Source of the DNA: Dictyostelium discoideum
Lineage: Eukaryota
Direction: 5' to 3'
NCBI GenBank assembly: GCA_000004695.1
Contig: CM000152.2
Coordinates: 608,001 to 672,000, forward strand
Length of the DNA stretch: 64,000 nucleotides
Made by a program: the position numbers and the translations under genes. Shown here piece after piece: positions 5,677-28,164 of the stretch. Position 1 is the first letter of the stretch. Each line of letters starts with the position of its first letter. The notes below the pieces were generated by a model. The model was not told the DNA's origin. It saw only the letters and a program-made list of their open reading frames with translations, and made no database searches.

Positions 5677-6553
5677 TCCTAATAAAATATTTTATTTTCC
5701 ATTAATTATTATAAATTATATAATTCTTTTTTTTTTTTTTTTTGTATAAACAATCCCTATAAAAATAATAGGAAAAAAAAATTAGATATTGAAAGTTCAC
5801 CATGTATATAAATAGTTTTTTTTTAAAAAAAAAATTATTTATTTTTAAAATTATTAATAATTTTTTAATTACAATATTGGAGGAAAATTTGATTGGATTT
5901 TAAAATTATTTTTTAATATTCTCAAAATTAATGTTGAAAAGTAGTTGGAGAAACTATGGATGGTTGAAAGCCTATGATAATTCTTTTTTTTTTTTGATAA
6001 AAAATAAAAATTGGTTTGCTAATTTTTTATTTTTTTATCTTTTTTTTTATTTTTTTTTTTTTATTTTTTGCATATAAAATTATAAAATAAATATTAATTT
6101 AAAAAATATTAATTAAAAATTTTTAATGCAAATGAACTATTTAAAAATGAAAAGAAAAAATAATTACCTTTTTATATGATTATTTGGTTATCAAGTAAAA
6201 ATTTAAATATTAAAAGATTTTTTTTTTTTTTTTTTATTAATAGATAGAAGGTGGGAAAAAATAAAGAAAAAAAAAACTTAACCTATTAAGAATCTGTCTT
6301 AATTTTAATTATAAAACCTTTTTTATAATTTTAATTAAAAAATAAATAAATGGGAATTAATTTTATCCCGAAAAAAAAAAAAAAAAAATATTATTATTAC
6401 CAGATTCTTTAGATCTTTTTTTTTATTAATTATTTACTTGGAAAAAAAAAGAGTTGTAATTCCTTTTAAAATTACCTATTGTTATTTTATTTTTATTTTT
6501 ATTTTTATTTTTATTTACAAGAATATTTATTTTATATATATATATATATATCT

Positions 6554-7009
6554 CTAATTTGACATTACAATACATAATGAGATTGCATTTACAATTGATT
6601 GAGAAGCATGTAATGGAACGAAATGGTCAGTTGAATTATTAACTATTTGAACACTATTTGAAGAGTAATGAGTCATATCGAATTGAATATCAATCCAATC
6701 AGGTGCACAATCTTGAGAAGCTGTTAAAACCACCAATGATTTATTACCCAAATATTGACTATTTCCAAAGAGATTATTTTGATTTATTAGTATATCATTC
6801 AATTGATTAATTGAATCAAATATAATTGATAATTCATTCTTTGATGCATCAATACTATTAAAAGATTGATAAATTAAATCTGTTGAATACTTTAAAGTAT
6901 CACTTAATTCAATTGTTGATGATCCTAAATACCCACTTGATAATGGAAAAAATGGTGTTAAAATTCTAGTAATACCACTTGGTAAAATATATTTTAAAAC
7001 TTTAAAACT
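6554..7009 (-). CDS. Alpha/beta-hydrolase-fold protein (lipase/esterase-like), exon 2
   Basis: Continues in frame from the acceptor aaaaaaag|AGT and reads SFKVLKYILPSGITRILTPFFPLSSGYLGSSTIELSDTLKYSTDLIYQSFNSIDASKNELSIIFDSINQLNDILINQNNLFGNSQYLGNKSLVVLTASQDCAPDWIDIQFDMTHYSSNSVQIVNNSTDHFVPLHASQSIVNAISLCIVMSN*. Confidence 0.6.
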   Translation of the reverse strand, partial: SFKVLKYILPSGITRILTPFFPLSSGYLGSSTIELSDTLKYSTDLIYQSFNSIDASKNELSIIFDSINQLNDILINQNNLFGNSQYLGNKSLVVLTASQDCAPDWIDIQFDMTHYSSNSVQIVNNSTDHFVPLHASQSIVNAISLCIVMSN

Positions 7010-7104
7010 CTTTTTTTATAAAAAAAAAAAAAAAAAATTAGAAAAAATTATAAATAAATATAAAATTATAAATAGATATATAAATTTATATAAATAGTGC
7101 ATAC

Positions 7105-7842
7105 ATTAATACCTTGATTAATAAGGTTAATTAAAAAATTATCAGTTAAATCAGTTAAACCCATTGAATCAATTAATAAGACACCATCAACCATTGATGG
7201 GAATTGTGATGCGAATAATTGTGACAATATACCACCATAACTCCAACCAACTAAAATTAAATGATCATTTATACCAATTAATTCTAAATATTGTTTTAAA
7301 TCATTAGCAGCTTCAATAGCATCAACACCTTTATTTCTATTACTTTTATATTTTAAATCACTCCAACCATATCCATATCTATCATATACACAATATTGTT
7401 TAATTTTATTCATTGGACTATTACTACTATTATTTATTTGTTGTTGTTGTAAATTTTCTAAAACGTTACCCCAAATAGTTGAATAAAATGGTGTACCAGC
7501 TTCAAATAGTATTGTTTTTTCAGCATCACCACCACCACCACTACCAGCATATTCAAAACATCTAATATGTAATGATGTTTCATTTATAGTTGGTCTAAAA
7601 CTTTTACCACCAAATTCACCAGAAAAAGTTTTATTTGGGTCTAAAAATATATCTGATTGTTGAATTAATAAAATTATATCTATTATTGATATTAATGATA
7701 ATGTAAAGAATAAATATGAAAAGTATCTCTTTTTATTAGTTTTACCAATAAAATAAAAAAATAATGATACTACCACTAAACAATATAATGTTGATGGTAA
7801 ATATCTATATTCTATTTTAATAAAATCACTTAAACAATTCAT
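7105..7842 (-). CDS. Alpha/beta-hydrolase-fold protein, exon 1
   Basis: Starts at ATG 7842. The N-terminus has two hydrophobic segments (LYCLVVVSLFFYF, LFFTLSLISIIDIILLI). A GxSxG nucleophile elbow is present at HLILVGWSYGGILSQLFASQFPSMVDGVLLIDSMG. The donor is AAT|gtatgcac and the intron is 95 nt. Confidence 0.65.
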
Positions 7843-7991: not shown

Positions 7992-8132
7992 CATTTTTTT
8001 TTATTTTTATTTTTATTTTTAATTTAAGAACATTTAATTTTATTTTTATTAATTTTTATTTATTTTTAACACAGATATATATATATGGATCTTTTTTTAA
8101 AATTAAATTAAATTAAATGTTTGTTTATTTAA

Positions 8133-8593
8133 TTATTTTTGAATTTGATAACGACGTTGTGGTTTATTAACTGAATCAGAAATTAACATTGCATCTCTAA
8201 TTTCAGGAATATCATGAATTCTAATTATATTTGCACCCCACATTGAACCAATACAACAACAAGCTATTGTACCCCATAATCTTCTTTCACTCTTTGGAGA
8301 TGGTGGTGGTAAGGATTTATCCTTTTCAGCATTTGCAATTGTATTTGCGATAAAACCTTTTCTTGAAGGACCAATTAATACTGGAAATCCTAAACCCATC
8401 AATTCTTTACCTCTTTGTAAAATTTCAATTGATTGTTCATAAGTTTTATAAAATCCTAAACCTGGATCCAAAATAATTTGCCATCTAAATAAACCTAACT
8501 TTGTACAAGTTTCAATTCTTTCTTTAAAAAATGAATTTAATGTTGTAATAACACTTTGGACTTGATAAATCAATTTTTTGTTTAATTTTTGAT
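8133..8593 (-). CDS. Trifunctional folate-synthesis protein FolB-FolK-FolP (DHNA / HPPK / DHPS), exon 2 carrying the DHPS C-terminus
   Basis: Reads DQKLNKKLIYQVQSVITTLNSFFKERIETCTKLGLFRWQIILDPGLGFYKTYEQSIEILQRGKELMGLGFPVLIGPSRKGF...RRYQIQK*. This is the conserved C-terminal half of dihydropteroate synthase. It is reached only by splicing out 8594-8699. Confidence 0.75.
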
Positions 8594-8614
8594 CTATTAT
8601 CGTTATCATTATCA

Positions 8615-8693
<79 letters not shown>

Positions 8694-8699
8694 CTTCAC
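8594..8699 (-). other. Intron of the FolB-FolK-FolP gene composed almost entirely of (AAT)n
   Basis: The donor is AAT G|gtgaagat (GT at 8699-8698) and the acceptor is gataatag|AT (AG at 8595-8594). The 106 nt between them is not a multiple of 3. Removing it is the only way to join the DHPS N-terminal and C-terminal halves, which lie in different frames. Confidence 0.6.
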
Positions 8700-10179
8700 C
8701 ATTTGTATTTATACTACTATTACTATTACTATCATTACTATTATTTAAATATTGTTCATTTTGTTTTTGTTGTAAATATTGAGTTGTTGGTTGTGAATGA
8801 TTTAATATAATTGGTACTCTAAATTCTTTTGCAATTAAAAGTATTTGTGGATCAGTCATACCACCACTAACATCATTGATGATATTACAACCTGCTAATA
8901 TTGCTTCCTTTGCAACTTGATGATGAAGTGTATCAATTGAAAGTGGAATATCATTACCCAATACTTCTCTAATCTTTTTAATGGTTGGCACAACACGATT
9001 GATCTCTTCTTCTATTGAAATTTGTTGAGCACCTGGATAAGTTGATTGACCACCAATATCGATGATATCAGCACCTTGTTCAATTAAGGCAGTAGCTTGT
9101 TGAATTGATTTCTCAAGAGTATTAAATTTACCACCATCAACAAAACTATCTGGAGTAACATTTAAAATACCCATTATAAATGTTTTATCATTCCAATTAT
9201 AATTTAAATTTCCAATTCTAATAACTTTTTCAATTATATTATTACATGTTGTTGTTGCAGTTGGTGGTGGTGGTATGTTATGAATGTTACCACCATTTGG
9301 TAAATTTAATTTCATTCTGTTTGTTGTTATATGTAATGTTGGATGAATGAAATTTGGAGCAATGTCAGAGAGTGGAAGTAATACGAAATCTCTTTCCCAC
9401 ATTAATGGATGTGGTATTTCTAAATCATCGGTTTTGATGATTAAACCATTATAATAGATGATATCGATATCGATTACACGTGGACCATTTCTAAATGTTT
9501 CAACTCTACCCATATCATTTTCAATTTGTTTAATGAATTTCAATAGATCGTGTGGTTTTAAATCTGTACTAACTTTACAAGCACAATTATAGAATGAATC
9601 TTGTTCTCTATAATATTGTGGTGAACTTTCATACATGAATGAAGTTGATTGTATAAAACATTGTTTTTCTAATCTTTTAAAACTATTTAAAATATTTTGA
9701 AATTTATCACCTAGATTTGAACCAAATGCTAAATAAACTATATTATTACCAGCATTACTATTATTACTATTCTTATTATTATTAATTAATTTTGAAGGTA
9801 TTTCAACAAATGAATTTGATTTAAAATAATCTAAAGTTCTTTCAATTTGAACACCTGGCCATTTAGCTAATTTAATTGCACCTGGTTTTTGTACCAAAAC
9901 TTTAACACGTTCAATACCAAATCCTAAACAACAAATTTTTGCCACACCAGTTGCTAATGCTTCTAATGTATAATGATGTGATGATTCTGAATAGGAACAA
10001 ATTGATTTCGATAAGGAACTATAAGAAACTGTATCAATTACATTATCTGATGATCCACATTTTGATAAATCTTTATATGCTGTAACTGAAATTATAATAT
10101 TTTGTTTAATTATTCTTTCACCTGGATTAACACCAATAACTGCTTGAATTAAAAGATCTTTTATTATAATTTTATCCAT
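8700..10179 (-). CDS. Trifunctional FolB-FolK-FolP protein, exon 1
   Basis: Starts at ATG 10179. The N-terminus MDKIIIKDLLIQAVIGVNPGERI is a dihydroneopterin aldolase signature. The middle segment ...FRNGPRVIDIDIIYYNGLIIKTDDLEIPHPLMWERDFVLLPLSDIAP is HPPK. The segment TFIMGILNVTPDSFVDGGKF...ADIIDIGGQSTYPGAQ...NDVSGG is the DHPS pterin-binding region. The donor is AAT G|gtgaagat. Confidence 0.8.
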
Positions 10180-10890: not shown

Positions 10891-11856
10891 TTAAAATTCA
10901 TCCTCTTCATCATGATCGACTGGTATATTATCTAAAAATGAGAGATCGGCAGTTGGAGAAGTTTTAGTTGGTGATACAGTATTAATAATTGGAGTTGGTT
11001 CTAAAACTAAATCATGATCAACTGGACTTGGATCAATGAGTGGTGGTGCAGTTATATTAATATCTTGTTGTTGTTGTTGTTGTTTTTGTGGAGAAGCAAT
11101 TGAATCATTCTTTCTAATTGGTGATGGTGATGAAAGTGGTGATGCAACTTTTTGAGTAGTATTTGTATTTGTAGTGGTTGTAGTAGTGGTGGTGGTTGAA
11201 GTAAAATCTAGATCATCTAAAAGTGATGCTGTATTATTATTATTTGTATTATTTGTATTATTATTTGTATTGGTTGTTGTTGTTGTTATATCAGAAATAC
11301 CAGAATGTAAACTAAAATGTTGTAATTGTGATAAAACTTTATCATAATCTTGTTGAGAAACAGATTCAATCTCTTCTAAAAGGTTTCTTTGTTTCTTTGA
11401 TAATGATTGTGCAGTAGCATTTTTTAAATAATCAAAAGATGATTTTGGTTGAGATCTTAATGATTCGAAATATTTCTCTGCTTTAATTGATAAATCATAT
11501 TGTGGGAATAAATTTGGGAAATCGATTGGATTTGAAAGTGCATCGGATGCTTTTGAGCTTGTACTCTTTAAACTCTCTTTCCATTTCTCAACCATATCAG
11601 GTACCATCGATGGTAAATAGGTACGTGCCATAAAGGCTGCCTCTGAGTAATCACCACTTGCACATAATGTATTCAAACAATTCAATAATGAATTTGGTAA
11701 TAAAAGATTACAAATAAAACTAATATTAGTTTGACCTTTTTCTTCTGACAATTTTGCCAACATTTTCATACCCTCAATATCACCTGTAGAAGTATATAAT
11801 AACAATAATCCTGGTAAATCTTCTGCTTTCTTTAAACAATTTTCTGCTAATTTAAT
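10891..11856 (-). CDS. Coatomer beta-prime subunit (COPB2 ortholog), exon 6 (C-terminal)
   Basis: Reads [97 protein letters not shown]...DHDEEDEF*. It is collinear with human COPB2 (...LLLLATASGN...AAFLARTYLPSQVSRVVKLWRENLSK) and has an acidic C-terminal tail. Confidence 0.85.
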
Positions 11857-11961
11857 CTATTTTTTTAAAAAAAAAAAAAAATACAAATAAAATTAATATT
11901 ATTATTTATAAAAAAACACCATATTATATATATATATATGTATTTTTATATATATATTTAC

Positions 11962-12273
11962 TTCACCAATTGATAAAGCTAAGTCACCTAAATGTTTAAA
12001 TTTAGTTTCAGAATCAGATTTTAAGGCGATTTCATGAGCAACATCAAGATTTTCTAATTGAATTGCTAATTCGAATCTATGATCAAGATCAGTTGAAACC
12101 TCTAATGCTTTCTCTTTATAACCTTGAGATTCCAAAAAGTGTGCAATACTATTTCTTTGATCTTGTGGTATCTTTGGTAAAATTCTTTCTGCACCTTCTA
12201 AATCACCTCTTAAAATTGATGTTTGATAGCTAATAACTGAAATATGTAATTTATATGAAACAATATTTAAATT
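11962..12273 (-). CDS. Coatomer beta-prime, exon 5
   Basis: Reads [104 protein letters not shown], which matches human ELNIVSYSLLVSVLEYQTAV...[34 protein letters not shown]. The 5' boundary has a 1-nt reading uncertainty at the 12240/12241 line boundary. Confidence 0.7.
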
Positions 12274-12383
12274 CTATTTTAAATGATAAGAAGAAAGAAA
12301 AAAAAAAAAGTATTAGTGATGGTATTTTTTTTTTTTTTTTTCAATAAATTTCCATTCTTTTTTTTTTTTTTTTTAAACTTTAC

Positions 12384-12716
12384 CTTATCAGATAAATATA
12401 AACGACCACTTTGTGGTAAATATTTAAGTAAATACATATGTTTCTCTAAATGTGAAATTGTAACAACTTCAGTACCAACACAATAGTTTAATTTACTACT
12501 TCTATTTATATAGATGAAACAATCACCAACCCAAAGACCAGTACCAATGGTATCTTCAATTTCATGTACAACATCAAAAGCATTCTCAATACCTAATTCA
12601 CCAATTGGTTGACCACTTTCAATATATTTTTGAACTGTATCTTTATAATATCTAAGAATGAATGTTGATTTATCTGTGACAATTGCTAAATAATCACCAT
12701 TTTCTGACCAAAAGAT
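12384..12716 (-). CDS. Coatomer beta-prime, exon 4
   Basis: Reads [111 protein letters not shown]. Splice sites are attaaag|ATC and GAT AAG|gtaaag. Confidence 0.8.
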
Positions 12717-12794
12717 CTTTAATCATTAAAATTAAAATTAATGTTAGTAATAATAATAAAAAATAAATAAATAAATATAATAAATAATACAAAC

Positions 12795-14060
12795 ATTTTT
12801 TGGTGAAGTTTTTTCAATTCTACGAATAATATCAGCAGAATCCCAACTATAGAAACAAAGTGTATCATTTGATTTTACACCAAGTAAAGAACCACCAAAG
12901 ATACCTTCAGCAGAGAAAGATGGTTTAAAACTATGAGTTTCTTTAAAGTTTTTAAAGATTTTAATACGAGATGTAGATTCACGTACAGCGTATTGACCTG
13001 AATCTTCTGCCCAAACAAATTCCAATGCATTACCAAATGATTTATTTCTCCAAGCTAGCGCGGTGTAAATGATGAATTCACCATCACCACAGACACTAAC
13101 GAATCTACCATTGGAGTTGTGTTGTAAACTTTGAGGGAACACTTCGCAATTGCCAAGATCTTTGGATTGGAGTGACAACTTTTCACCATCTTGTACCTCT
13201 TGCTCCAATGTGGAGGAGATGTTTGAGATTCTAATCTCATTGTGTTTTGCGTAGATTACCTTACCACCTTGGTCCATTGAAACGGGTGGTTTGTTCTTAC
13301 CAATCTTCAACACCACTGTACCGTCATCGTAGCCCAACCCAATGAAGTTGGAGCCACGTAAAAAGTTCATTGACCAAACGAAACCCATGCCATAGTTGAG
13401 TGTCCTCTCCAAACGGTAGGTGCTGGAGTGCCAGAGCTTCACGGTGCCATCTTCACTGCCGCTGAGGATCAAGGGGAGCTCGGGGTGGTAGCACACCACC
13501 GAGACGTTGTTTGAGTGGCCCTCCAATGTCTGGACGCAAGTCTTTGATTGGTAATCCCAAATTTTCACTAGCTTATCGTCGGCACCGCTTATCAAGTATG
13601 GCTTTTCACCGCCAGAGAAATACTCGACACTGTTGATACCCTTTTCGTGTCCCTCCAATGTAAAGTGAGGATGTGGTGAGTTTATACTCCACACTTTCAC
13701 AGTTTTATCCAATGATGCGGTTGCAAATTGATTGGTATCCTTTGGATTCCATGCAATCGACATGACGTAATGTGAATGTCCTTCAAAGACTTGAGTGTTA
13801 CTCCATCCCTTTTCATAATCCCATAACTTTATAAACATATCATCCGATGATGATAATATATATGGTAATGTTGGATGAACTATAATACATCTAATATAAT
13901 CGGCATGTGCTTCAAATGATTTTATCTTTTCCATTGTATTATAATTATAAACTCTAATATATGTATCATCACTACCTGTAACTATCCATTGTTTCTTTGC
14001 AATGAATCTTGCTGTTCTAACTGGATTATTTGGTGAAACTTCAAATGATTTTACCATATT
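12795..14060 (-). CDS. Coatomer beta-prime, exon 3 (WD40 propeller)
   Basis: Reads [86 protein letters not shown]...[10 protein letters not shown]. The donor is AAA AAT|gtttgt. Confidence 0.85.
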
Positions 14061-14244
14061 CTTTAATATTTTACATAATCAATCATCATCATCATCATCA
14101 TCATCATCATTTTTTTCAAAAAAAAAAAAAAAAAAAAAAAAAAAGAGTTTTGTGTGACATTATTATGATAATATTAGTATAAATAATTTATTTAAAACAT
14201 TATTGTTATTGTTATTATTGATTATACTATATGTAAATACATAC

Positions 14245-14361
14245 TTGAGTTTCATAATTCCAAATATAAACATTACCATCATATAAACTTGCTAAAATCC
14301 ATGGTTCTGTTGGGTGAATATCAACAGATTTAACTCTATCTGATCTTGTTGATAATTTTTT
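14245..14361 (-). CDS. Coatomer beta-prime, exon 2
   Basis: Reads [39 protein letters not shown], which matches human [39 protein letters not shown]. Splice sites are tatatag|AAA and CAA|gtatgt. Confidence 0.8.
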
Positions 14362-14587
14362 CTATATATTAATTATTATTATTATTGTTATTGTTTTTTT
14401 ATAATTGTTATTTTATAGTTTAGAATTATTTTTATATTGATAAGAGAATATTAAATACAGTAAAAAATTAAAAAAAGAGTTAGGAGTGTGAGTTAAATTT
14501 TTATTTTTTATATTTTTTATTATTTTTTTTTTTTCAATTATTAATATCTTAAAGAATATAATAATAAAAATAATAATTAAATAATAC

Positions 14588-14611
14588 CTTAATATCTAAA
14601 CGTAAAGGCAT
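14588..14611 (-). CDS. Coatomer beta-prime, exon 1 (24 nt)
   Basis: Reads ATG CCT TTA CGT TTA GAT ATT AAG|gtattat = MPLRLDIK, identical to the human COPB2 N-terminus. The intron is about 226 nt. Confidence 0.7.
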
Positions 14612-14908
14612 TTTTTTATTTTTTTATATATTTTAAATATATATTGATAAAAAATATATATTAATAATTGAAAAAAAAAAAAAAAAATGATTTTTTTATA
14701 AAAAAAAAAAAAAAAATAAAAAATAAAAAAAAAAAAAATTTTGAAAATTTAAAAAAATGATGTTGAAGTTTCATTTTTGGCCACGTATAAAAAAAAAAAT
14801 AAACAAATTACACCTTAATTTTTATTTTTTAATAAAAAAATTGGTTATGTCTTTTGTGTAAAATAAATAAATATATACATACTAGGTGTTCAATGCATTG
14901 TTGTTAAA

Positions 14909-14949
<41 letters not shown>

Positions 14950-15185
14950 ACTCAATATTGAGGGAAAAAAAAAAAGAAATTAAAAAAATAAAAAGTAAAA
15001 ATAACAAAAAAAAAAAATTATTTTTTAGATATATTTATATATACAGATTTTTTTATTTAATTAATAATTTACAAATGTGTTTTTTTTTTTTTTTTTTTTT
15101 TTTTTTTTCTTTGGAAATCTTGGCAATGACTTTTTAACTTTTTGGGTTGGCACTTGTTTTAAAAATTGTTTTTTTGGTTTTTTTT

Positions 15186-15368
15186 TTATTTGGAAATCTT
15201 TGTGGAAGTCTTGGTGGAATATTTGCCCTTGGAGAGGATTCTTTTGGATTTTGAAAACATTGGTAATGACTTTTTAACTTTTTGGGTTAGTACTTGTTTT
15301 AAATCAAACATTTGAACTCTAGTTCTTTTTGATAATTGGATTGCTCTTCTTGTTACAATTTTAACCAT
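15186..15368 (-). CDS. Small basic ORF of unknown identity (60 aa), copy 1 of a divergent pair
   Basis: Starts at ATG 15368 and reads MVKIVTRRAIQLSKRTRVQMFDLKQVLTQKVKKSLPMFSKSKRILSKGKYSTKTSTKISK*. Its N-terminal 36 aa are conserved with the ORF at 15866-16015 through conservative substitutions. Confidence 0.4.
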   Translation of the reverse strand: MVKIVTRRAIQLSKRTRVQMFDLKQVLTQKVKKSLPMFSKSKRILSKGKYSTKTSTKISK

Positions 15369-15865
15369 TTTTTTTTTATTTTTTAAAACCTTTTTATTTA
15401 TTTATTTTGATTTATTTGCTTTTATTTAATTATTTTTTGATTTGTTTAAAAAATTACAAAATTTTGGTTGGTATTTATTTTAGAAAAAAAATAAATGAAA
15501 AAAAAAAAATTATAAAAAAAAAAATAAAAAAAATTATTTGTGGATTGACTTTTACAAGAAATCTTTTTTTTTTTGTTAAAAAATTTTTTTATTTTTTGCT
15601 TAAATTAAAAAAAAAAAAACAAGAGAAAAAAAAAAGATAAGAATGATCAAGAGTTCTTTTTTTTATTTTAAGCAAAAAATATTATTTTCTTGTAAAAATA
15701 AAAATAAAAATAAAAATAAAATTTTGTCATCCTCAATTTAAACCTTTTTTTTTTTTTTTTATTTTTTTTATTTTTTTTTTTTAAGATTTTTATGAATAAA
15801 TTTATAAATTAGTTTTTAATAAAGAAATACATTAAAGAAAAAAAAATAATAATAAAGAAAATAAA

Positions 15866-16015
15866 ATGGTTAAAATAACAACTAGAAGATCAATCAAATT
15901 ATCAAAAAGAAATAGAGTTCAATTATTTGATTTAAAGCAAATTCTTGTACAAAGAGTCAAAAAATCTCCTCAATTATCCATAAAAAAAAAAATTACAAAA
16001 ATCAAACATAAATAA
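15866..16015 (+). CDS. Small basic ORF of unknown identity (49 aa), copy 2 of the divergent pair
   Basis: Reads ATG GTT AAA ATA ACA ACT AGA AGA TCA ATC AAA TTA TCA AAA AGA AAT AGA GTT CAA TTA TTT GAT TTA AAG CAA ATT CTT GTA CAA AGA GTC AAA AAA TCT CCT... = MVKITTRRSIKLSKRNRVQLFDLKQILVQRVKKSPQLSIKKKITKIKHK*. It was not listed in the ORF track, probably because it is shorter than 60 aa. Confidence 0.35.
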   Translation: MVKITTRRSIKLSKRNRVQLFDLKQILVQRVKKSPQLSIKKKITKIKHK

Positions 16016-16576
16016 AAGTACCTGAAAGTTGTGAAAATAAAAAAAAAAAAAATTGGCTGTTTATGAAACTACTCAAAATGGACCAAAAGGAGTATTGATC
16101 AACAAAAAAAAAAACTTTATGATAGATAACCTTGCGGGTAGTTTAACGTCACCCCCACCACTGCATCGAAAACTAATAAATTTTTAATTAATTATATTCA
16201 AATTTTATTCTACAAATCCAAATTTTTTTTTCTTTTTTTTTTTTTCTTTTTTTTATTTTTTTTTATTTAAACAATTTTTTTTATTTTTAAAGAATATTTT
16301 TTTTTTTTTTTTTTATTGTTTGCACTTTTTCAGATTTTTTTTACTTTTTTTTTATTTTTTGTATGCTTTTTATAGATTTTTTTTTTTAGATATTTTTATT
16401 TAATTTTTGAATGATTTTTTTACTTTTTTTTTACTTTTTTTTTTATTTTTTTTTTTTAAAAAAAAAAAAGGTTACCTTTAATGTCCACCATACACCTCAA
16501 AATAAGTAAAATAAATTTTTAATGCCTAAAAAAAGCCACCACAACCCATAATAAATAAAAATATAATTTTTTATTA

Positions 16577-16629
<53 letters not shown>

Positions 16630-17079
16630 TATTTAAAAAGAATTTGATTACTTTTTTTTTTATTATTCTCCAAAAACAGATTTTTTTAATTTTTTTTTTT
16701 TTTGAGATTTTCACTCCGATTTCAAAGCATTATTTGAATTGAACTGTTAGGGTGATGAATTTTTCCCAGCACACACAGAAAAATTATTTTCTAATGGAAT
16801 AGTATTACGGCAAGCCGACAGACACTATATTGTTCCACAATGATTAATCAAAAAATCGAAAAAATTTTATTTTTAAATTAACATAATTTTTTTTTTTTTT
16901 CTTTTTTTTTTATTTTCTTTTTTTTTTTTTTTTTAATGTATAATATTATTTTAATTTTTTAAAATTTTTTTTTTTTTTTTTGGAAATTTGTTCTATAAAT
17001 AATTTGTATTTTTATTTGTCATTATAAAAATTAAGAGTTTTACTTTACTCTTAAATAAATAAATTTGGTTAATTCTCTA

Positions 17080-17127
<48 letters not shown>

Positions 17128-17260
17128 TTTAATATAAAAGATAAATAATAATAATAATAAAAAATAATTTAAAATTAATTTTTATAAAATATAAAATAGT
17201 AATTAATAATAAAAAAAAAAAAAAAAAAAAGTAAAATAGTTTTAAAAAAAAAAAAAAAAA

Positions 17261-17533
17261 ATGAAAAAATTAAATTATTTGTTGATTGTTTCATTTATTT
17301 TCATTTTAAATCTTTTGATTTCAAAATCACAAGTTTTAATTGATGTTACAGCAAAATGTGAATTAATCGATTCTTTATCACCATGTAAAGATAATTTAAA
17401 TTACACTCACATTTATTTACCTACAGGGTATACACAAGCAGCAATTTCTGCCCAAATTACACCATTATTCCAACAAGCTTCAATATTACCCACAGATTGT
17501 CAATCAAATTTAAAAAATCTTCTTTGCATTTCA
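17261..17533 (+). CDS. Frizzled/smoothened-like (Fsl) 7TM receptor, exon 1 (signal peptide plus start of the Fz cysteine-rich domain)
   Basis: MKKLNYLLIVSFIFILNLLISKSQV is a signal peptide. The segment CELIDSLSPCKDNLNYTHIYLPTGYTQ...DCQSNLKNLLCIS has the Frizzled CRD cysteine pattern. The donor is TCA|gtatgt. Confidence 0.7.
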
Positions 17534-24970: not shown

Positions 24971-27900
24971 TTAATTTTTAAGGAAATAAATTTCAGCATC
25001 ATTATCTTTAACAATTGAGACAATTTCAGTTGCAAATGAATTTGATGGTGAAGTAGTTTCAGAGAATTGAAGATTGAATAAAATGGTTTCTTTAATGTAA
25101 TCGTTATTATTTTCAATGGCAGTTTTTAATTCAGCTTCTTTAGTATGATAAAACATTGATACTGGATCATCAAAGGTGAGACCACTCTTCTTTCTAAGTC
25201 TTTGAACACGATTGATTAATTCACGAGCCAAACCTTTTTCATAGAGTGCACTATCGACAGTAAGATCTAAAACTGTTAAGATTTCTTCATTACCTGAAGG
25301 TTCAGAGTTTGTAGTTTCACCATTATATTTACGGATGATTTTAAGATCTTCAGAGGTGAGTTCATGACCAAGAATATCGATGGTTTGAGTTTTTTGGAAT
25401 TCACGAAGTTGTTCATTGGTGAGTTTAGAGATTAATGGTGAGATCTTCTTAAAGTCATTCTTTAAACGGGCACCTAAACGTTTGTTATCGGCTTCAGCAG
25501 TGACAACAACGAATGAACCTTCATCACTTGTGAGAACGATATTTTGGATATTTAATTCCTCGAGGATATAAGATTTGAGTGATTCTAAATCGGCGAGATA
25601 TTGTTGATTCTCAGTGATGACCATAAATTCTTTGAGTGGGAATTTAATTGGTTTGGTACGACGATCTCTAGCGGCACGACCCAATTCGATGACAACTTGC
25701 ATACGTGAAATGGCTTCTTCAATTCTAGTGTTGAAAGCTTCTTGAATTGGTTCAGGGAACATAACATAGTGAACTGAATCCATTTGTTTCTCCTTTGGTA
25801 ATGCTTTCTTAAGATTTTGGTACATGTACTCTGTAAAGAATGGAGTGAATGGACCCATAGCAATACAAATGGTCATTAAAACCTCATAGAGGATATTGAG
25901 AGCGGCAAGACAATCGGCATCACCATTTGAACCCTTTAAACGCTTACGATTTAAACGAACGAACCAATTGGTAAGATCTTCAATGAAACGAACCAATTTT
26001 GGTACGACAGTGTATAAACGATAGGCGGCCATTTCTGCACGTACAAATGCAATGAGTGATTGGCAAGAGGCAAGAATCCATTTGTCCATAACATTTTCAG
26101 AGGCAAGAGCAACCTTAATATCTGGTTGGAAAGTGGTGTTGGTAGCTTTTTCAAAACGAAGACAATTTTGAACAAAGAAACGATAGGCGTTAAACCATGG
26201 TAAGAAAACATCTTTGATCATATCTTGAACACCTTTCTCTTGGAATTTCAAAGTTTCAGCTCTAACAACTGGTGAATTGATAAGGTAGAGACGAAGAGAA
26301 TCAGCACCAACCTTTGATACGACTTCCATTGGATCTGGATAATTCTTTAATCTCTTTGACATTTTCTTACCATCAGCAGCTAAAACCAAACCATTAACAA
26401 TGAGATTTTGGAAAGGTGGTTTATCAAAGAGAGCAGTTGATAAAACCAATAGTGTATAGAACCAACCTCTAGTTTGATCAAGACCTTCGGCGATAAAGTG
26501 AGCTGGGAAGATCTTTTCAAATTTATCCTTATTTTCAAATGGATAATGTTGTTGAGCGTATGGCATAGAACCAGATTCAAACCAACAATCGAAAACATCT
26601 TCAATACGACGGAGTGTACCTTTACCTTTTTGTGATGGAATTGTAATATGATCGATTGATTCACGATGAAGATCAGTTACACGAACACCAGAGAGACGTT
26701 CTAATTCGTCGATACTGCCAATGACAACAACTTCTTCACCATCTTCACTAATCCATAATGGGATTGGGGTACCCCAATAACGATTTCTACTGACAGCCCA
26801 ATCTGTTGCATTCTTTAACCAATTTGCAAATCTTTTCTCTTTGACAAAATCTGGTACCCAATAGGTTTTATCATTGTTTGCTAATAATTTATCACGAATT
26901 GATTCGACTCTAACGAACCAACTACCGACTGCTTTGTAGATCAATGGTGTATCTGAACGCCAACAATATGGATAACTATGGACAAGATTTGCACTATTTA
27001 CCATACGACCTTTATTTTTGAGATAAATGCTAATTTGTTTGGTGGTTTCAGCGTCTTTTACCATCATACCAGCGAAATCGGTTACATCACTTGTGAAACA
27101 ACCATTGGCATCGACAGAGTTAAGAATTGGACGTTTGAATTGATCTCTAGAGATGACACCATTGGCAATACAAACATTGAAATCGTCCTCACCATAGGCT
27201 GGTGCAGTATGAACGATACCGGTACCAGAATCATCGGTAACGAAATCACCACCAATAACAACGAAACCACCCATATTGGCATCACTTGCAAAGTATGGGA
27301 ACATTGGTACATACTTTTTACCAATTAAATCTGTGCCTTTCATTGTTTCTAAAACTGTATATTCCTTATCTGATTTGTAGAGGATTGAAGTACGATTTTT
27401 ACCAAGGATAAAGATTTGATTACGTTTGATATCATTGATCTTTATGTATTCCATCTTTGGATTCACAGTCAATGCTAAATTGGATGGAAGGGTCCATGGG
27501 GTGGTGGTCCATGCCAAGATTGAAACTTTCTCATCATCAAGAGTTTGGAATGAAACAACACATGCTGGATCACTTACATCCTTGTAGTTTGATGATGCTT
27601 CAAAGTTTGATAATGGTGTTGTGCAGCCAATTGAGTATGGCATAACTTTGAAACCTTGGTACACCAAATCCTTCTTAAAGAGTTCTTGGAAAACCCACCA
27701 AACACTCTCCATAAATGGTGTGTCCATAGTTTTGTAATTGTTTTTCATATCGATCCAACGACCCATACGATTGACTACGATCTCCCACTCATGTGAATAT
27801 TTCATAACGATTGAACGACAATGTTGATTATATGTTGGAATACCCATCTTTAATACATCCTCCTTGGTTCTAACGCCATGAAGTTTATCAATTTCAAACT

Positions 27901-28164
27901 CAATTGGTAAACCATGACAATCCCATCCAAAACGTCTTTCAACATGATGTCCAGTTTGATGAGCATAACGTGTGATTGTATCTTTAATTGTACCTGCTAA
28001 AATATGTCCATAATGTGGTAAACCTGTTGCAAATGGTGGTCCATCATAAAATGAATACTCTGGTTTACCTTCACTCATTTTTACTGAGGTTTCAAATGCT
28101 TTAATATCATCCCAATATTTTAAAATTTTTGATTCTTCTCCTGCAAAATCAATTTTTTGTGGAA
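24971..28164 (-). CDS. Isoleucyl-tRNA synthetase (cytoplasmic type), exon 2
   Basis: The class-I HIGH motif (PHYGH) and the KMSKS motif (KMSKRLKN) are both present. The ORF extends upstream of the ORF-track Met: VPQKIDFAGEESKILKYWDDIKAFETSVKMSEGKPEYSFYDGPPFATGLPHYGH matches human IARS1 (VPENINFPAEEEKILEFW...FTFYDGPPFATGLPHYGH). The acceptor is aaattttag|TT. Confidence 0.85.

Follow-up and report, generated by a model that had tools for sequence, protein, structure and literature searches.

The stretch of Dictyostelium discoideum DNA analysed here (64,000 nucleotides of AX4 chromosome 3, contig CM000152.2, positions 608,001 to 672,000; hereafter the window, in whose numbering coordinates are given) carries two small open reading frames (ORFs) that point away from each other within a 2.65-kb intergenic region, between a coatomer beta' gene on the minus strand and a frizzled-like gene on the plus strand, which starts at 17261. 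An earlier reading made from the letters of the window (the sequence-only reading) had placed these ORFs at 15368..15186 on the minus strand and 15866..16015 on the plus strand, and the coordinates and the divergent arrangement were verified. The minus ORF, identified from the ORF list and by an exact protein match, is the small gene DDB_G0278287 (XP_642265.1, UniProt Q54YD7) of D. discoideum AX4 chromosome 3, and so is already annotated as a hypothetical protein. Its gene number is consistent with that of the neighbouring gene fol1 (DDB_G0278283). It encodes 60 amino acids, with a computed mass of 7.0 kDa, an isoelectric point (pI) of 11.9, and 18 lysines and arginines against a single acidic residue. 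The plus ORF, identified from the ORF list and by tblastn, encodes a paralogous protein of 49 amino acids (5.9 kDa and pI 12.0, computed). Its exact sequence was not found in a collection of 15 billion proteins, and it therefore appears to be unannotated. Both products are strongly basic, with 17-18 Lys+Arg against one acidic residue. Both ORFs start in the context AAAATGG, and in both the TAA stop codon lies inside an AATAAA.

The divergent spacer between the two ATGs (15369..15865) is 497 bp long and has a GC content of about 12%. On each side of it the coding strand carries an oligo-T run (approximately 15484-15535 for the minus ORF and 15745-15783 for the plus ORF), followed by an A-rich leader and AAAATGG, and the same oligo-T and A-rich layout is found upstream of a long, lectin-domain paralogue described below. 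From the promoter layout that we take to be typical of Dictyostelium, the spacer presumably holds the promoters of both genes. No further copies of the conserved part of these ORFs are present in the window.

The two ORFs are clearly related to each other (28/39 identities by BLASTP, E = 2e-17). The sequence-only reading described a shared N-terminus of 36 amino acids; the similarity is real, while the part that aligns without gaps is 34 codons long, with 26/34 residues and 82/102 bases (80%) identical. This N-terminal module comprises codons 1-34 of the minus ORF (15267..15368, minus strand, MVKIVTRRAIQLSKRTRVQMFDLKQVLTQKVKKS) and codons 1-34 of the plus ORF (15866..15967, plus strand, MVKITTRRSIKLSKRNRVQLFDLKQILVQRVKKS). 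At the DNA level identity is 80% over the first 102 nt of the ORFs and 78% over 150 nt, and the pair can be described as an inverted repeat with 149-nt arms at 15268-15416 and 15818-15966, which are 74% complementary and separated by 401 nt. Upstream of the ATGs, the 100, 48 and 20 nt preceding the two start codons are 0.49-0.60 identical, which is the chance level (0.44-0.61 in shuffled sequences). The tails past codon 36 are likewise at chance level, 1864 of 2000 shuffles scoring as well. Detectable homology is therefore limited to the region from the ATG through approximately codon 34. The tail of the minus copy (codons 35-60, 15189..15266, minus strand) is rich in Lys, Ser and Thr, is unconserved and unlike the plus tail, and is modelled as disordered.

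Differences between the two modules are distributed as expected for a protein-coding sequence under constraint. Counted by the method of Nei and Gojobori over the 34 codons, there are 9.5 synonymous differences over 21.5 sites and 10.5 non-synonymous differences over 80.5 sites, giving a ratio of non-synonymous to synonymous divergence (dN/dS) of 0.215 (Fisher p = 0.0015). By codon position, the differences number 6, 4 and 10 at first, second and third positions, respectively. When the 20 base differences were placed randomly over the module, only 21% of simulated sequences remained free of stop codons, and 0.12% kept at least 26 identical residues (p = 0.0012). A codon-usage log-likelihood, trained on genes versus intergenic DNA of the window, gives each module its best score in the proposed frame (0.64 bits/codon for the minus copy and 0.35 for the plus copy; the reference values are 1.30 +/- 0.37 for coding and -1.39 +/- 0.42 for intergenic windows), with no frame preference in either tail. 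The plus copy also has dN/dS values of 0.23-0.65 in comparison to other members of the family introduced below. Purifying selection on a real peptide, which the sequence-only reading had proposed and for which it had named the dN/dS between the copies as one check, is thus borne out by the ratio and the simulations, as well as by the recurrence of the module from Met1 in other Dictyostelium genes and species. Neither ORF has the marks of a pseudogene, both being intact, free of frameshifts and premature stops, and with a dN/dS between them well away from 1.

Exhaustive hmmsearch of 1.84 billion representative proteins with a profile of both window ORFs enabled the identification of relatives. 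Three proteins were recovered besides the query (P0002, P0003 and P0004). P0002, a protein of 978 aa with an E value of 1.4e-14, was rejected: it is a translated tandem repeat, in which 14 units each contribute -2 to 7 bits, and its score is a summed artefact. P0003 matches from residue 1 in one stretch with 39.9 bits (E 1.7e-5), and P0004 also matches from residue 1, with 35.9 bits (E 6.8e-4). Reciprocal tblastn with these relatives finds both window ORFs (E 1e-7 to 3e-4). Word-index protein searches with the 60-aa ORF and with a four-sequence profile returned only the query's own entry, missing P0003 and P0004. Among the proteins searched, the credible relatives all belong to Dictyostelium, and no match to either ORF was found in Pfam or among PDB sequences at E <= 10, in agreement with the earlier suggestion of an orphan family outside any known one. 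On this sequence evidence, the module family appears confined to group-4 Dictyostelium species and previously undescribed.

P0003 (KAM9957567.1) is a protein of 320 aa from D. discoideum assemblies other than AX4, encoded by a single uninterrupted genomic ORF (one exon) beside a discoidin-like gene. It consists of the module, a Gln-rich linker and an L-type-lectin-like domain, the latter matching Pfam PF18483 with E 6.4e-9 and 36.4 bits, under the curated cut-off of 78.3 bits. Orthologues in D. cf. discoideum, D. citrinum and D. dimigraforme have a nearly unchanged module and a variable Gln-rich linker. The L-type lectin domain itself (PF18483, a beta-sandwich of approximately 215 residues) is not found in either window ORF, and no remnant of it is found in their flanks. 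P0004 is the D. purpureum protein XP_003282936.1 of 147 aa, which has three further copies, more than 90% identical, on other contigs. These paralogues have a dN/dS of approximately 0.19 and their first 28 codons are unchanged. Close to the C-terminus of the 147-aa protein there appears to be a second occurrence of the module (30 of 5000 shuffles scoring as well), and perhaps another in the middle of the protein (219 of 5000).

When the DNA of the four gene types is aligned, similarity starts exactly at the ATG. Twelve positions are invariant in the two window ORFs and six other members (M1, V2, I4, T6, R7, L12, K14, R15, R17, Q19, L23 and L27), and the family consensus can be written MV[KR]I.TR....L.KR.R[VI]Q[LM][FC][DN]L..[VIL]L, followed by a (K/Q/R)(K/R)VKK(S/T) cluster, for a module of approximately 27-34 residues. 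By tblastn, it is the apparently unannotated plus ORF, and not the annotated minus ORF, that lies nearer to the family consensus; over 27 aa it shares 78% of its residues with the lectin-domain paralogue of D. discoideum, and its identity to the D. purpureum protein is 67%. Only one AX4 protein with the module was found in the searches of protein collections.

Three observations concern the surroundings of the 320-aa paralogue, at 8001-8963 and 9267-12923 of contig L002 (D. discoideum assembly GCA_054859385.1). The gene is missing or unannotated in the AX4 reference strain, given that the protein collection holds no AX4 counterpart. Its discoidin-like neighbour combines F5/8 type C and H-type lectin domains. 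Next after the 320-aa paralogue comes a tandem array of five genes, unrelated to it, for proteins of 112-138 aa that have the pattern "...FILSIKE..FYCKSLS...EIDYCEPD.SFSR" in common.

We consider it probable that the pair represents two genuine divergent small protein-coding genes, short paralogues of the module family for which a targeting or competitor role can be proposed. The module evolves under purifying selection, whether it stands alone or is fused to other sequences. The pair may have arisen by an old inverted duplication of the 5' segment of a gene, of which the selected module alone would have survived divergence. AlphaFold2, run on an alignment of eight sequences, predicts a sole helix at residues 17-33, preceded by an extended start and followed by a disordered tail (predicted local distance difference test (pLDDT) score of approximately 70 in the helix); a single modelled helix is more in keeping with a short interaction module than with a folded domain. 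All eight aligned members have K14-R15-x-R17, which fits, as a pattern match only, the classical monopartite nuclear localization signal (NLS) K-[KR]-x-[KR]. Since the invariant KRxR and the KVKK-type cluster resemble a classical NLS, the module is taken as a putative targeting and/or partner-binding element, with a predicted amphipathic helix at 17-33 and with protein or nucleic acid as the possible partner. The short forms would carry the module without an effector domain and, by occupying the same partner as the long lectin-domain paralogue, could act as microProtein-like competitors or modulators of it.

MicroProteins are truncated paralogues that keep only the interaction module of a larger protein, for example the plant LITTLE ZIPPER proteins in relation to HD-ZIPIII, and the animal Id proteins in relation to bHLH proteins. 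Like these, the window proteins are very short, would be equivalent to a single module of a larger paralogue, apparently arose by partial duplication, and are under selection. Unlike these, their module is an N-terminal basic peptide with one predicted helix rather than a known dimerization domain, and partner binding, dimerization or antagonism would be hypothetical. The uncharacterised proteins with the module (KAM9957567.1 and its orthologues, XP_003282936.1 and its paralogues) resemble the window genes in starting with the module from Met1 and continuing with a basic Lys/Ser stretch, whereas the window genes end after 49-60 residues with no further domain. The lectin-type members differ from them in a seven-residue insertion (YSPLPRI) in the module, the Gln-rich linker and the beta-sandwich domain of about 200 aa, and the D. 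purpureum 147-aa protein in its apparent module repeat near the C-terminus. As is the case for orphan small-protein genes, the window genes are small and of low complexity, have no homologues outside one genus and match nothing in Pfam or PDB; unlike single-species orphans, their module is conserved from D. discoideum to D. purpureum and occurs in more than one gene architecture, evidence against an ORF that arose de novo in recent times.

A bolder version, which we consider decidedly unlikely as a whole, would make the module a portable N-terminal peptide, specific to the lineage and serving as an address or for interaction, of which Dictyostelium would have made repeated use: joined to a lectin-like domain, within a multi-copy 147-aa protein, and in stand-alone mini-genes, the last of these titrating its partner as microProtein-type regulators. 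In one variant they would be short-lived substrates or pseudo-substrates of the anaphase-promoting complex/cyclosome (APC/C). The weaker lead behind this variant is that the APC/C destruction-box pattern is matched by R17-x-x-L20-x-x-L23, with a Lys-rich tail after it; M20 of the minus copy breaks the pattern. More broadly, if the pair is what we propose, an ORF of 49 codons, apparently unannotated, joins a hypothetical protein in a defined Dictyostelium-restricted family in which one module occurs in three gene architectures, and a gene that is probably missing can be added to the AX4 annotation. The pair would also offer a compact, tractable case of truncated, microProtein-like paralogues in a genetically easy organism, and a handle on the N-terminal region of a lectin-like protein family. 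The significance is modest, in that this is a prediction and current understanding is not challenged by it.

A number of points weigh against two functional genes. The selection test between the window copies is based on 34 codons only. The codon-usage scores of the modules (0.35-0.64 bits/codon) are below those of typical coding sequence, and the score of the plus tail resembles that of intergenic DNA. Compared to the lectin paralogue, the minus copy has a dN/dS of 0.97 (over 27 codons, with few sites), and it carries M20 where all other members have L and A9 where most have S, so that it may be drifting. Exact-product look-ups of the small proteins returned no gene call, and a full-text literature search for DDB_G0278287 and Q54YD7 found no paper with either identifier. 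DDB_G0278287 is not among the RNA-seq and proteome supplement tables searched, which are incomplete (one of those checked covers a subset of genes), making this an absence of data. The structure model is of low confidence (pLDDT 58 overall), and the functional part of the proposal, namely the NLS-like cluster and the competitor role, is drawn from sequence motifs only. Lastly, no AX4 orthologue of the 320-aa lectin-domain paralogue was found in the protein collection, and AX4 itself may thus be without the proposed competition partner.

The main rival explanation is decay, where the ORFs would be non-functional relics of partial duplications that copied the 5' portion of some longer member, whether of the lectin-domain or of the 147-aa type. 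The ORFs match only the first 35-55 residues of the long paralogues, their tails are of low complexity, unconserved and without frame-specific codon usage, a dead 54-bp fragment adjoins the minus ORF, and both the near-neutral ratio of the minus copy to the lectin paralogue and the apparent lack of annotation of the plus ORF would agree with such an origin. Against this, the module is still 80% identical in DNA and 76% in residues, synonymous changes being in excess, while flanks and tails are random. In neutral simulations a stop arises in 79% of sequences, and 99.9% fall below the observed residue identity. The ATG, the start context and the stop within AATAAA are all kept in both copies, and downstream neither a lectin domain nor the body of the 147-aa protein has left a detectable trace. 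Decay seems unlikely. That the ORFs are instead first exons of longer spliced genes, with further exons possibly lying in GC-richer islands at 16053-16190, 16470-16550 and 16700-16850 or to the left of 15186, would be in keeping with the presence of these islands downstream of the plus ORF and with the additional domains of the long family members. The sequence-only reading had asked the same of unrecognised introns. There is no GT donor near the point where conservation ends, and the only GT past the plus stop follows the in-frame TAA. Both stops overlap AATAAA, the long paralogue is itself a single exon, a tblastn search of both flanks with the long paralogues yields nothing above noise (best E 0.53), and the coatomer beta' gene starts (exon 1, 14611..14588) within 575 bp of the minus copy. 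We regard such an extension as quite improbable.

The inverted repeat could also be read as the ends of a small DNA transposon or miniature inverted-repeat transposable element, for example a PIF/Harbinger-related one, the ORFs being incidental. Such a reading draws on the 149-nt arms 401 nt apart, and on D. purpureum, where the homologous ORF lies in a dispersed repeat of ~0.8-5.5 kb, found on at least four contigs with 88-99% DNA identity; on one of these (L004) remnants of a Harbinger-type transposase (DDE_Tnp_4) lie head-to-head with the 147-aa ORF at a distance of approximately 500 bp, the same geometry as that of the window pair. The similarity between the arms is, however, confined to the ORF module and patterned by codon position, with an excess of third-position change, and the ORFs read outward from the arms. 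Tblastn with the transposase pieces of L004 finds nothing in the window at E <= 1, the Harbinger remnant lies outside the unit common to the four D. purpureum copies, and the ends of the repeat unit there are without terminal inverted repeats. Moreover, only one AX4 protein in the collections searched carries the module, which is thus not high-copy in D. discoideum. Compared to the accessory ORFs of PIF/Harbinger elements, the window pair has no transposase, terminal inverted repeats or Myb/SANT-like domain, and the association holds for one of four D. purpureum copies. A mobile-element relic is very improbable. Similarly low is the probability that the conserved 100 bp is a nucleic-acid element, whether a promoter-proximal or leader element, an RNA motif, or a pair of upstream ORFs regulating the coatomer beta' and frizzled-like genes. 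Each copy is upstream of, and on the same strand as, one of these larger genes (starts at 14611, minus, and 17261, plus). Those starts, however, lie 575 bp and 1245 bp away, the intervening DNA holding AATAAA signals and long homopolymer runs, and Rfam gives no match at E <= 1. At other loci and in other species the module heads unrelated coding regions, always from the ATG, and an excess of synonymous change is not expected of a DNA or RNA element.

A second, isolated piece of the module lies next to the minus ORF. The sequence-only reading described a 40-bp direct repeat as contained in the minus copy, with its encoded motif occurring once beyond the stop codon; the repeat is real, and blastn and pairwise alignment extend it to 54 bp (15110-15163 versus 15250-15303, 48/54 identical, ungapped, 140 bp apart). 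Its second copy lies not inside the ORF but 3' of the stop codon. This stray duplicate of codons 23-40 (15110..15163, minus strand) is, by three-frame translation, in another frame and without an ATG, and its sole entry in the ORF list is a 30-aa ORF starting with GTG. It differs by 2 synonymous and 4 non-synonymous changes, counted from the alignment, and so fits the definition of a pseudogene. A local duplication most likely left it behind as non-coding sequence. In the scheme proposed above it would be a later addition, a younger slip copy that landed in the 3' flank of the minus ORF. A 140-bp tandem unit behind the repeat was rejected, the flanks of the two copies being dissimilar and the segment isolated. 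Splicing that would join the repeat to the ORF was also set aside, as by eye only non-canonical or trivially repeat-equivalent sites are available. A short motif, CCAAGAYTTCCA or CAAAGATTTCCA, can be seen by eye three times on the minus strand at the 3' end of the minus ORF and beside the 54-bp copy (15195-15218 and 15110-15122). It is read in different frames (KISK versus RFPK), and, if real, suggests local slippage-type duplication and not protein-level constraint.

To the left of the pair, the coatomer beta' gene (10891-14611, minus strand) has an ordinary-looking structure, of which the 5' part was reconstructed as exon 1 (14611..14588, encoding MPLRLDIK), exon 2 (14361..14245) and exon 3 (14060 to 12795), with at least two further introns downstream of exon 3. 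An origin of the module from the N-terminus of coatomer beta', parts of which resemble QLSKRT-RVQMFDL, was rejected, as the Smith-Waterman scores of 19-22 are matched by 50-78% of shuffles. An exact-product look-up of a neighbouring protein of 1409 aa found none.

The three islands downstream of the plus ORF (16053-16190, 16470-16550 and 16700-16850) have a GC content of 26-36%, in comparison to approximately 10% around them. The middle island holds the window's sole full ACCCATAA, at 16544 on the plus strand, which we take to resemble the Dictyostelium upstream sequence element (DUSE) of non-coding RNA genes. The third island contains a box-C-like GTGATGA and folds somewhat better on the plus strand than shuffled sequences (z = -2.0, 9/200). 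None of the islands has an Rfam match at E <= 1 or similarity to proteins of the module family; a search of region 13500-17500 against Rfam 15 at E <= 1 gave no relevant match, and a tRNA search of the window found none. From their composition and motifs, the islands could be unannotated small RNAs or regulatory blocks.

In D. purpureum, the dispersed repeat that contains the 147-aa member covers approximately 2100-8650 of contig L001 and 7765-8558 of L004, and is also present on L003 and L005. A unit of about 0.8 kb is common to the four contigs, and more than 5 kb is common to three, including a 130-aa ORF and an internal block of tandem repeats. The right-hand flanks fall into two classes, and L001 and L005 differ by an insertion of approximately 880 bp. 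The repeat may be a mobile element or a segmental duplication. On the minus strand of L004, at 6487-7494, two Harbinger-type (DDE_Tnp_4) ORF pieces have been merged with a peptidase M20 gene in the deposited gene model.

Elsewhere in the window, the isoleucyl-tRNA synthetase (IleRS) gene at 24971-28078 is found on nine Logan contigs, eight of which (L006-L013) are 3.3-3.4 kb long. These contain the IleRS ORF with approximately 160 nt upstream and 60-130 nt downstream, and have the appearance of either assembled transcripts or genomic contigs interrupted at homopolymer runs. In the former case, Logan would include RNA-seq assemblies of D. discoideum.

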